Translations under genes and position numbers: made by a program
Notes under the pieces: generated by a model
Told to the model about the DNA's origin: nothing
Seen by the model: the letters and a program-made list of their open reading frames with translations, nothing else
Databases searched by the model: none
Shown: one piece after another, positions 47,023 to 55,303 of the stretch
Numbering within the stretch: position 1 is the first letter of the stretch
How the letters are laid out: every line of letters starts with the position of its first letter
Origin: Octopus vulgaris
Lineage: Eukaryota
Assembly (NCBI GenBank): GCA_951406725.2
Contig: OX597821.1
Span: 78,368,001-78,432,000, forward strand
Reading direction: 5' to 3'
DNA length: 64,000 bases

Positions 47023-47350
47023 ATGAAGGCATCGACTGAATATCATACAATTCTGAAGGTACTGCAATGTTTGACAATTATGGTTTTCGTTATTCTCAAG
47101 ACTGTGGAACCGAAATACATGGAAACATTTTTTAAACAATTACCAAATCCAAGATGCATAAATGGTCGAATTGGTTTAAAGAATAAAACGGCTTCTGTCA
47201 TAGAATGCGCATTATATTGTATGTCCGACAATAGATGTGGCTATTTTAATTATTGCAATGGTGAGTGCATCATGTATAAGAGATGGTACGGCAGTGAAAT
47301 TGTAGATTATGATTGCAACTGTACATCCTATCTGATGCTTTATGGAAAAA
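47023..47350 (+). CDS. Gene B coding exon 1 (signal peptide + PAN/apple-like domain)
   Basis: tttcAG ending 47017, ATG 47023, donor GTGAGT at 47351; 328 nt; 8 Cys align without gaps to gene A. Confidence 0.92.
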
Positions 47351-50300
47351 GTGAGTACACCACAATTTTTGTTCTATACCATTTCCACCATTGTAATGTA
47401 CCTAATTAAGCACCTGAATATTGGGTGTCTCTCTTTCTTCTTCATTTTTTGTTTCAATTTGCACCCCGTTTCTGCCCCCTTGTATGTAAAAAGACTAAAA
47501 CATGACGCAAATATATCAGACTTTGCTTCTGTTTTTAATATGGAGAGCTTTGCGTTCATTTATTCAGGAAATTATATGGAAAGTATATGGACGTATTTTA
47601 TGGAAAATGAAATCAATTTGACAAAAACCCAGTTGAACATAATATCAGAACAAAATTTCTTTATCACTTTTTACTGGTTTCATCCATGTACTAGCTGTAA
47701 TTTGCCAGAAACACAACATACGTTAAAATCCTGACTGTTATTTAGAAAATCATATCTTGTTTTTCTTTCTTTTCTGTGATTGATATGCGATAAACTTACT
47801 CGTGCATACAATTGTTGATGGATTACTCATCAATTTAATGTAATAGATACAATATTTCACACATCGTAGAAATTCTACACACATACATAAGCCAAGCATT
47901 ATCTCCATACATAAAGTCGAGCGGTTTTCTACGAACAGACACCCTGAAAATATAACCAGAACACAATCATTAAACATAGCAAGTAAGATAATGTGATCAC
48001 AACAAAGCCATGAGAATTAACACCAATATTAATCTTCATAACTTCTGATTATCTCACGTATTTTCCGCATCCATACAGCATTGTGGAAACTACATCTGAA
48101 GTAATAGGTTTATTTTTCATTGTCTTCAAAATTGTGCATTCTTAGTGATGGTGATCGAAACCCACTTCAGTCCATTACTCAGCTATTCTGAGCGGCGTCG
48201 CTACTACGACAAAGAAATGATTTATATAACTACATTATTTTCCTACGCTTGCAATGTCTGAGAATCTAGCTATGTATCTAATTACCTAGATTTCTAGCAA
48301 AACGGTTAAACCTTCAAAGTAGCGACAAGTTCCAGGTATCAAAATCCATGCCACCCCACACCACGTGATAATTAGTGTAAAAATTTATATCAAACTTTAT
48401 AAATTCAAGGAGAGAGACATTATGCGGTCGGCCAACCTACTTGAAATATTGGACAAATCTTCCTAAAATCACATCCTGTTATCTTGATAAGATATCAGGA
48501 ACAACTTCTCCCAAAGGATTTCTCAAATAAGGTTGACTTAGTGTAGGGTTGATTATAACTATAAAACTGTTCTAGTATTTCGGTTGAATATCAAGTTTTA
48601 AAAAATATTCAAATTCTTCTACTCTTTTAATCCTTTATTTGTTTCAGTCATTTGACTGCGACCATGCAGGAGTACCGGCTTAAAGATTTTAGTGCAACAA
48701 ATCGACCCCAAGACTTAATCTTTATGAGCTTAGTACTTATTCTATCGATATCTTTATACCGAACATAAACACCCCAGCATCGGTTATTAGGCGATGGCGG
48801 GGGCGGGCAGTAAACAAACAAACACACACACACACACACATAAATATATATACGACGGGATTTTTCAGTTTCCATCTACCAAATCTACTCACAAGGCTTT
48901 GGTCGGCCCGAGGCTATAACTGAAGACATTTACCCAAGGTGCCAAGCAGTGCGAGTGAACCCAGAACAATGTGGATGGGAAGCCAGCTTCTTACCACACA
49001 GCCATGTCTACTTCTGGAACTAAAGCTAAAAAAAAATATCAAGATGAATCCTAGGAAAATTGTATAACAGATATTATAATTTCTAAACCAATGCAATAAT
49101 CTTCACTGCACTGTATATTAGTATATTTTCTTCAACATCTTAATAAAATTTGTTTAAAAATTCCGTGTAACCTTTTCCCTGCAGGACTTCTCGACCAGGG
49201 TTGTCATGGTGCTAAATAACAACAATAACGATGTTCCGGTATAAAAAATCTTAATAAAGTTTAATTACGAGTCTTCTTTACATTTGAAGTATTCCTTAAA
49301 GCATTCATTTTTATTTAATACTCATACAGGCACAGACTGGCAAAAAGTATTTGCAATGAAAAAAACTTCCTTTATAAGAAATCCTTTTTATTTACACTGG
49401 GACAGCATGCCTATTGCAAAGGTAATACGTTTTTAGTTTCAAAGTGATTGTCATTTAATAAACAGTCATCATATGTAATAATACTTTATGGTTTTATACA
49501 TTTGATTTTTAGAATTTTCTTCTTGTCCACATCGCAATGGCGTAAGTATTGCTGTTTGTGTTTGGTTGTTGCTGTTTAACCCAAGTGGTCAAAGGGATTC
49601 CAATCTTGAGATCCTCTCTTTTCGCTCATTACTTAACTTGATTATCCTCTACAACCATTTTATTTTTGTCAGAAAGCAAGATATAAGTAAAGTGCGGTTT
49701 GGCTGCTATTTCTGGCAAAGCCATCGACTACTTAAAGATTTATTGAGTCAAATGTGACTAAAAATGAAATCTTTAATTTACAATGTATCTCACATACACA
49801 CACTCATTCACAAACACAGAAACACGTGCATGTTGCACATATTTACAAATGTCTTATGGTAAGGTTTATTGTGTCTAGGGTGAGTCATTCTATTTTAATG
49901 CTCTTTTGATTAACATACTCACCAATTCGATTTCCACTCATTTATTTATTTATTCTTTTTCTAAAATTTCCGTTGCTTCTTGCAACTTCTGTAGACGTTG
50001 ACTCTGTCCGTTATCGGTTAAGTTTTTACGTATATAAGCTCAGCCGTACCTTTCATCGAATATACCTAAAAAGAATAGTGAACGATCGAGGAAGCCTCTA
50101 ATGGTCTTTAATCTACAGAAATAGTTGTTAAATCTACAATCGTATAAAAGATCTTGCACTCTTAAAAATAGAATAGGAGGGATCAATTGTATAAATTTTT
50201 CTTAGAAACGCTCTGGGTGCAAAAACAAGCTATATGGTCATGAGTGGAATGTCTTTGGTTATAAGTCAGATCAATGAGAGTTGTTCGGCTAAATAACCGG

Positions 50301-50354
50301 CAGGAAGAAAGAATATTAATATTCATTAAATTGTATTTCTCTATAACCAGCAGC

Positions 50355-50441
<87 letters not shown>

Positions 50442-54703: not shown

Positions 54704-54758
<55 letters not shown>

Positions 54759-54801
54759 CATATATATATATATGTATGTATGTATGTATATGTCTTCTTT
54801 T

Positions 54802-54847
<46 letters not shown>

Positions 54848-55303
54848 AAGTGTGTAACCTAACTACAACATAAATAGATTCCGAAATCATTATTAATCAT
54901 TATACATGAAACATGTCTCTTAAAATATGTTTGATTTGCTGCCAAATAAACTGAAAAACTAAACATTCAAAATACTACAGATTATATTTGCTCTTTGACT
55001 GACGTCAAATACGAACTTGTTGAGCCTAACTCTGTACTTCTGAATGATAAAATATGGTGATTTAATTGTATTTAGAATGAACGATATTTATAATGCAGGC
55101 ATTGATGGAGCCTCTTAATATTAGTCTTAAAATATTTATTTCTATATTGATGTGTATATTTTTGAGATAAATGTCCATGTAACTTTTGGATATTTGTGAC
55201 CATCAGTTGTAGATATATCATTAATTTAACACAACTTTTCTTAATTTCAGGTAGTTCGAGAATGGATTTGAAAATCCTGAATGTCTTCGTGTTATTCAAA
55301 TAG
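47023..55303 (+). CDS. Gene B: secreted PAN/apple-domain protein, paralog of gene A, 243 aa; join(47023..47350,49330..49421,51247..51398,54582..54688,55251..55303)
   Basis: All introns GT-AG; 732-nt open frame. [30 protein letters not shown]...[22 protein letters not shown]...CNC...|STDWQKVF...[14 protein letters not shown]...[12 protein letters not shown]...TPW...|MKPSLKI...|[23 protein letters not shown] at 55493. Confidence 0.9.
48630..49005 (-). mobile_element. tRNA-derived SINE in gene B intron 1
   Basis: Reverse-complement homolog of 38558-38975. Confidence 0.85.
49330..49421 (+). CDS. Gene B coding exon 2
   Basis: ctcatacAG / GTAATAC, 92 nt, [30 protein letters not shown]. Confidence 0.9.
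51247..51398 (+). CDS. Gene B coding exon 3
   Basis: ttgaAG / GTATGT, 152 nt, [38 protein letters not shown]. Confidence 0.9.
51700..54300 (-). mobile_element. Old CR1/Jockey-group LINE relic in gene B intron 3, with a SINE inserted at 52612-52830
   Basis: Higher-GC complex sequence with frameshifted RT-like relics ([26 protein letters not shown]). Confidence 0.5.
54582..54688 (+). CDS. Gene B coding exon 4
   Basis: ttacAG / GTAAGT, 107 nt, open in the required phase ([35 protein letters not shown]). Confidence 0.85.
55251..55303 (+). CDS. Gene B terminal coding exon 5
   Basis: ttttcttaatttcAG acceptor, phase 1, [17 protein letters not shown] (53 nt). Confidence 0.82.

Follow-up and report, generated by a model that had tools for sequence, protein, structure and literature searches.

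Two divergent octopus genes joining a PAN/apple domain to a cysteine-free domain of probable fibrinogen-like origin

Fibrinogen-related domains, among them those of ficolins, FIBCD1, tachylectin 5A and ANGPTL3/4, and mollusc proteins combining PAN with Fibrinogen_C, work in an extracellular context. In fibrinogen-like domains, according to PMC5928061, the P subdomain is where ligands bind and varies more than any other part, and in FIBCD1 and tachylectin 5A, according to PMC3908420, a disulfide connects the calcium site with the acetyl-binding pocket. The two genes described here, A and B, lie in a stretch of 64,000 nucleotides (nt) of Octopus vulgaris DNA (assembly GCA_951406725.2, contig OX597821.1, positions 78,368,001 to 78,432,000; the window from here on), and are intact paralogs of one octopus family. 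Their products would share that extracellular context, and they combine an N-terminal PAN/apple domain with a C-terminal domain that, on profile comparison, is by homology a member of an unnamed domain of other animals, minus its cysteine pair. This C-terminal domain is not classed as a fibrinogen-related domain, because it has neither subdomain A nor the P disulfide nor a Pfam match and its fold match is weak, and it is probably a derivative of one.

The two coding models have five exons each and face apart, head to head, gene A on the plus strand (47023-55303, 243 codons open) and gene B on the minus strand (26036-13695, 249 codons open). Their coding exons are the following (aa, amino acid positions).

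47023..47350, plus strand: gene A, exon 1, 328 nt; leader, hydrophobic over about aa 10-27, followed by the PAN/apple domain with 8 Cys (aa 31-108)
49330..49421, plus strand: gene A, exon 2, 92 nt; the C-terminal domain's first strand and its helix, with W113 and W133
51247..51398, plus strand: gene A, exon 3, 152 nt; the conserved core of this domain, with F157, G159, W167 and W178
54582..54688, plus strand: gene A, exon 4, 107 nt; variable Cys-free region, where long relatives carry a Cys pair
55251..55303, plus strand: gene A, exon 5, 53 nt; terminal strand and TAG stop
25709..26036, minus strand: gene B, exon 1, 328 nt; leader and PAN/apple domain
24579..24670, minus strand: gene B, exon 2, 92 nt
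19016..19167, minus strand: gene B, exon 3, 152 nt
14648..14754, minus strand: gene B, exon 4, 107 nt; length and phase as in A, sequence diverged
13695..13765, minus strand: gene B, exon 5, 71 nt, TAA stop; chosen among 17 acceptor candidates for its match to the family's terminal strand

All introns are GT-AG and their phases (1/0/2/1) are identical in both genes. The common coding lengths (328/92/152/107) and phases that an initial annotation, made from the letters alone, had assigned to A and B were reproduced, the value of 328 holding for the coding part of the first exon and not for the full exon, which starts 5 nt (A) or 2 nt (B) before the ATG. Its hand-counted identities were also exactly recovered in ungapped comparison (39/109, 14/31 and 20/50 in exons 1, 2 and 3); in exons 4 and 5, aligned without gaps, 2/35 and 1/16 residues are identical. 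The whole proteins gave a local alignment score of 401, where none of 500 shuffles went beyond 59, and exons 4-5 alone scored 30, a value reached in 17 of 1000 shuffles. Gene B matched the family domain profile with an E value of 5e-35 over positions 2-146 of 146. Two orthologs of A, O. sinensis LOC118764578 X2 (238/243 identical) and O. bimaculoides LOC106876623 (195/243 identical), are both 243 aa long and colinear with our model; they are database records lacking functional or C-terminal domain annotation, the second carrying the UniRef label 'Apple domain-containing protein'. For codons 1-190 of A and B, the ratio of nonsynonymous to synonymous substitution (dN/dS) was 0.40 (bootstrap 0.20-0.62), with dS at 1.3 and thus near saturation, and this ratio indicates purifying selection on both genes. 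In the public sets searched, gene B appears only as a broken fragment running into introns (label P0012; 100% identical over 73 aa of the C-terminal domain), and many family hits are fragments, so that one or both models could be thought to be pseudogenes or annotation artefacts. The open frames, canonical splice sites, dN/dS value and conserved 5' exon, together with orthologs of A that have the same length in two species, make this scarcely credible; that A and B are real paralogous genes, as first proposed, is close to certain, and the public model of gene B is corrected here. The paralog check by tblastn with A and with B gave no third copy in the 64-kb window, and Rfam gave 0 matches.

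The N-terminal domain of A has the PAN fold, a helix on a five-stranded sheet of about 80 aa. Its Pfam scores stay below the gathering thresholds (PAN_4 20.3 bits against 27, PAN_1 14.3 against 21.4, gene B lower still) because the PAN sequence has diverged, since the family profile still reaches the apple domains of factor XI (E 3e-4). The four core cysteines, located in the helix and the strands after it, are present in every row with a residue at the position among the proteins that, like A and B, have the short form of the C-terminal domain described below (C62 14/14, C66 14/14, C72 16/16, C82 15/15), counts that concern presence and not pairing. Fold, profile and cysteines together leave little doubt about the PAN/apple assignment of the initial annotation. 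Compared with the PAN domains of plasminogen, HGF, factor XI, apicomplexan microneme lectins and leech anti-platelet protein, the family has 8 Cys, four of which (45, 78, 98, 100) are specific to it. Sequence and profile searches of PDB sequences returned only PAN domains or chance rows, and in a viral fold library nothing matched at E 0.001 or better, the credible rows being again PAN domains.

Both proteins begin with one hydrophobic stretch and carry glycosylation sequons (6 in A, 5 in B), and it is highly likely that they are secreted or surface-bound. Their cleavage sites, judged by eye, are poor, which together with the 5-6 sequons and the co-occurrence of ZP, TSP1 and D8C domains in long relatives would fit structural or adhesive proteins of the extracellular matrix or cell surface, possibly held by an uncleaved N-terminal anchor and diverging mostly by drift. 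We consider this decidedly unlikely, given that the stretch is short (about 13-16 residues) and broken by Lys/Arg and Gln, and that most paralogs show a small-residue pattern past it, with G at column 28 in 9/12.

The C-terminal domain contains no cysteine in A (aa 110-243) or in the matching part of B, as had been claimed. The description 'W-rich' did not hold up as a distinguishing mark: tryptophan accounts for 4/134 residues in A and 5/140 in B, a modest content that averages 3.3% in the short form and 3.9% in the long relatives. A domain profile collected 70 domain rows from 62 family proteins plus A and B, and these rows divide into a short form, about 133 aa long, to which A and B belong, and a long form, which has 175-195 aa and 2-6 Cys. 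The two are homologous (hhalign 99.5%, E 2e-22, 134 columns), and the profile hits on long-form proteins ranged from 7e-11 to 9e-4, with 2e-31 for one tandem protein, in agreement with the earlier suggestion that the domain is related to an unnamed domain of other animals. Molluscs were rightly named among its bearers, as the ESM Atlas clusters nearest to one long-form protein are molluscan (phylum known for 105/106 members, Mollusca commonest); amphioxus, which the initial annotation also gave as a bearer, is named in no result here.

Both forms share a homologous core with W113, W133, F157, G159, W167 and W178. In an alignment of 42/62 family proteins, the first two conserved tryptophans are 19 columns apart in short rows, with few exceptions, whereas long rows have 36-59 columns there, and the distal span of complete rows covers 56-63 columns in the short form and 72-97 in the long one; the short form is thus without some 17-40 residues past the first strand and without some 20-35 in the distal half, including both cysteines. 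Two cysteines 15-19 residues apart, flanking a GW-like motif, were found in 28/33 long rows, and the pair in the distal half is invariant in an 18-row long-form alignment and absent in A and B. Among the short rows 21/24 are Cys-free, the other three having 1, 1 and 2 Cys. The PAN domain differs between the forms as well, given that the four family-specific cysteines of the short form are absent from the long one, while the layout of PAN plus this domain is also present in long-form relatives. Further partners of the long form are Sushi, EGF, C-type lectin, TSP1, ZP, kringle, D8C and GON domains. We infer that the short form is the derived one, because the long form is more widely spread. DUF7922 was considered as a name for the domain and rejected, having matched 1/59 proteins, with a score summed over four repeats on a 32-residue stretch.

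With respect to fold, the best matches of aa 109-243 of A were TLDc domains (Oxr1, Z 6.2, rmsd 4.0, 115 aligned residues; NCOA7, 6.0; TBC1D24, 5.2-5.4). The fibrinogen-like rows lie about 1 Z unit from the TLDc rows, a near tie, and correspond to a weak match to subdomains B and P with 3-9% identity. Taken at face value, the top Z scores would make the domain one derived from, or working like, TLDc rather than a fibrinogen-like domain. TLDc proteins (OXR1, NCOA7, TBC1D24) are, however, cytosolic or intracellular partners of the V-ATPase and have no sequence match with the octopus protein, in which a leader and glycosylation sequons accompany the PAN domain, and the identified partner domains of its relatives are all extracellular. 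The Cys pair of the long relatives also suits the fibrinogen P subdomain, and Pfam TLD gave no match for P0001, P0002, 59 hits and 18 long-form proteins, all of which makes a TLDc origin very unlikely. A fibrinogen-derived domain is the probable alternative, even though Pfam Fibrinogen_C or COLFI likewise gave no match in the same protein sets.

The octopus short form departs from known fibrinogen-related domains in being without subdomain A, any cysteine, a Pfam match, or a collagen or coiled-coil stalk. The match to ANGPTL3 starts at residue 278, past Cys274, and the PAN domain ends at about aa 108 with no Cys after aa 100, so subdomain A with its disulfide is absent. The P-subdomain disulfide has no equivalent in A or B, whose domains have 0 Cys, and thus the bond linking the calcium site to the acetyl-binding S1 pocket in proteins of the ficolin/FIBCD1/tachylectin-5 type has no counterpart in them; the candidate pair of the long rows is in a similar place, with 15-19 residues between the cysteines versus 12-13 in FIBCD1, tachylectin 5A and ANGPTL3/4.

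Divergence among the short paralogs is unevenly distributed: aa 179-229 have a mean identity of 24%, compared with 42% for the PAN domain and 45% for the core. The isoelectric point of the C-terminal domain is 10.0 (basic) in A and 6.5 (neutral) in B, a contrast that would be compatible with different ligands. Regarding the age of the pair, 9/10 comparisons of 60-base intron flanks between A and B fell within the shuffled range and none was clearly above it; with flanks at shuffled level and dS of about 1.3 near saturation, they yield no age estimate.

These data led us to a proposal for how the family might work, to which we give an even chance: secreted, glycosylated two-domain binders, built of a PAN domain and a probably fibrinogen-derived beta-sheet domain, that would contact outside ligands through a variable Cys-free surface. 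The N-terminal hydrophobic stretch would direct the protein to the secretory pathway. The C-terminal domain would correspond, according to the weak fold match and its context, to fibrinogen subdomains B and P minus A, and the missing Cys pair to the P-subdomain disulfide, the bond between the calcium and acetyl-sugar sites of ficolins and FIBCD1. Should this fold assignment be correct, loss of this disulfide would imply binding unlike that of ficolins: without it and part of its loop, binding would be calcium-independent. Focusing of divergence on the variable region of the C-terminal domain could give paralogs different ligands, either glycans or proteins, and the paralogs may together form a repertoire for recognition or adhesion, on body surfaces or in the haemolymph. 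A non-enzymatic binding role is rather likely, while immune or microbial ligands in particular are a tentative and somewhat doubtful specification. The family could even be a calcium-independent scaffold made in octopus from a subdomain-A-less fibrinogen-like module, by deletion of the ligand loop and disulfide, addition of PAN disulfides and expansion to some 20 paralogs with a hypervariable face, that is, an undescribed repertoire of secreted receptors in immune, symbiont or mate recognition, parallel to snail FREPs; this we offer as speculation, with the odds clearly against it.

The products could instead be components of gland secretions (saliva or venom gland, mucus, egg or spermatophore coat) acting on prey, host or mate molecules, as do PAN-fold leech salivary proteins. 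The leech matches nevertheless rank below plasminogen and HGF and reflect the common PAN fold only, and word searches in the main text of cephalopod venom papers (including 10.64898/2026.04.09.716377 and 10.64898/2026.02.02.703354) turned up no domain family of the PAN, apple or fibrinogen type. The identifiers and motifs tried were also without a match in proteome supplements of salivary gland, skin mucus and ink (PMC7693380, PMC10138644, PMC10142993), a weak test because the files may use other identifiers or be incomplete. Overall a role in gland secretions seems unlikely.

The extent of the family was explored with a 4-row profile against 1.84 billion representatives, which gave 60 hits at E 0.001 or better; word-index searches, returning 2, 2 and 6 proteins, were too insensitive for a family count. 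In a midpoint-rooted tree of 63 rows (7 rows below 100 aa dropped, groups assigned by us), the 23 short rows all fall to the same side of a 100/100 branch, without a sister pairing of A and B. Clustering at 70% identity divides the 24 short rows, of which one tandem protein supplies two, into 21 clusters. The six named members are all from Octopus (O. sinensis 4, O. bimaculoides 2), and we infer a probably Octopus-specific short form with some 20 paralogs, from rows that may represent several genomes and include many fragments. Two O. bimaculoides family genes have near-adjacent LOC numbers, which suggests a gene cluster in that species too, and one paralog (P0003) carries two short C-terminal domains in tandem behind one PAN domain. 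Among the unnamed ESM Atlas clusters scoring 0.94 with the C-terminal domain, one consists of viral proteins and another has some members from Myxococcota; a tblastn search of 50,697 phage records with one long-form protein gave nothing, and when bacterial and archaeal genomes were scanned with the O. sinensis ortholog, a search that would detect close relatives only, there were 0 relatives among 28 pattern matches.

The family had been called uncharacterised, and indeed there is no confident sequence match to any characterised family, nor was a description found in the open-access literature searched. The genes are already catalogued as uncharacterised, and it is the trimmed Cys-free variant and its probable fibrinogen-like origin that appear undescribed in that literature. 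This work provides a first structural reading for an unannotated octopus gene family and for a wider invertebrate domain missing from Pfam. It also adds a candidate recognition family for animals in which little is known of the genes for immune and chemical recognition. If the fibrinogen link is true, the short form would represent a natural deletion experiment, without subdomain A or the calcium-linked disulfide, yet kept under purifying selection and diversified some 20-fold. No known mechanism is overturned, and the functional role is a proposal from sequence and fold.

Upstream of the coding exons, A and B appear to keep a further exon of the family in non-coding form:

40641..40706, plus strand: gene A, 3' part of upstream non-coding exon; donor GTAAGT after 40706, inverted match to B
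29522..29587, minus strand: gene B, 3' part of upstream non-coding exon; donor GTAAGT, and GTG where paralogs have the ATG of the MNLK start

These 5' exons are about 11 kb apart and belong to an inverted match (40641-40787 versus 29587-29442) with 72% identity (106/147), whereas 200 shuffles averaged 60% and reached at most 70%; a 12-base donor motif occurs once per strand, with the GTAAGT donor after 40706 in A and 29522 in B. The gene A exon joins in frame to the acceptor before 47018. In gene B, joining it to the acceptor preceding the ATG recreates the MNLK-type N-terminal motif seen in 10/62 retrieved family proteins, with GTG replacing ATG, and it is this join that indicates that both genes retain the family's first exon as a non-coding one. 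The match to the paralog N-terminus is the stronger evidence for a shared 5' exon, as 72% identity is barely above the shuffled maximum. In two public models (P0019 and P0024) the family's first exon is joined directly to the C-terminal domain. The exon for leader and PAN domain, a phase 1-1 cassette, is left out of them, perhaps through alternative splicing or else through mis-prediction.

Several repeats were also observed in the window. Intron 3 of gene B contains a broken mariner-type DDE transposase remnant (16828-17850, minus strand; Pfam Transposase_1, E 3e-28), and a repeat of about 200 bases with 75-85% identity is interspersed in intron 3 of both genes (52596-52835 in A; several copies within 15425-21904 in B), probably a short interspersed element rather than a trace of a shared ancestral intron. 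Between A and B lies a tandem array of about a dozen units of some 22 bases (30370-30640, by eye). Other transposase-like remnants, recognized by eye only, are at about 30700-31110 (plus) and 43040-43620 (minus), the latter without Pfam match. Fragments recalling long interspersed or Penelope-like elements were noted at 831-1487, 3384-3866 and 9457-9831 (minus) and at 26600-28330, 45500-46364 and 61948-62247 (plus), the sole one with a Pfam match being 834-1487 (zf-RVT, weak, E 0.007). A repeated element at 61108-61698 matches 6498-6661, 7566-7983 and 8132-8641 over 170-420 bases with 72-88% identity, and a 117-codon open frame at 36910-37263 (minus) resembles a Helitron fragment.
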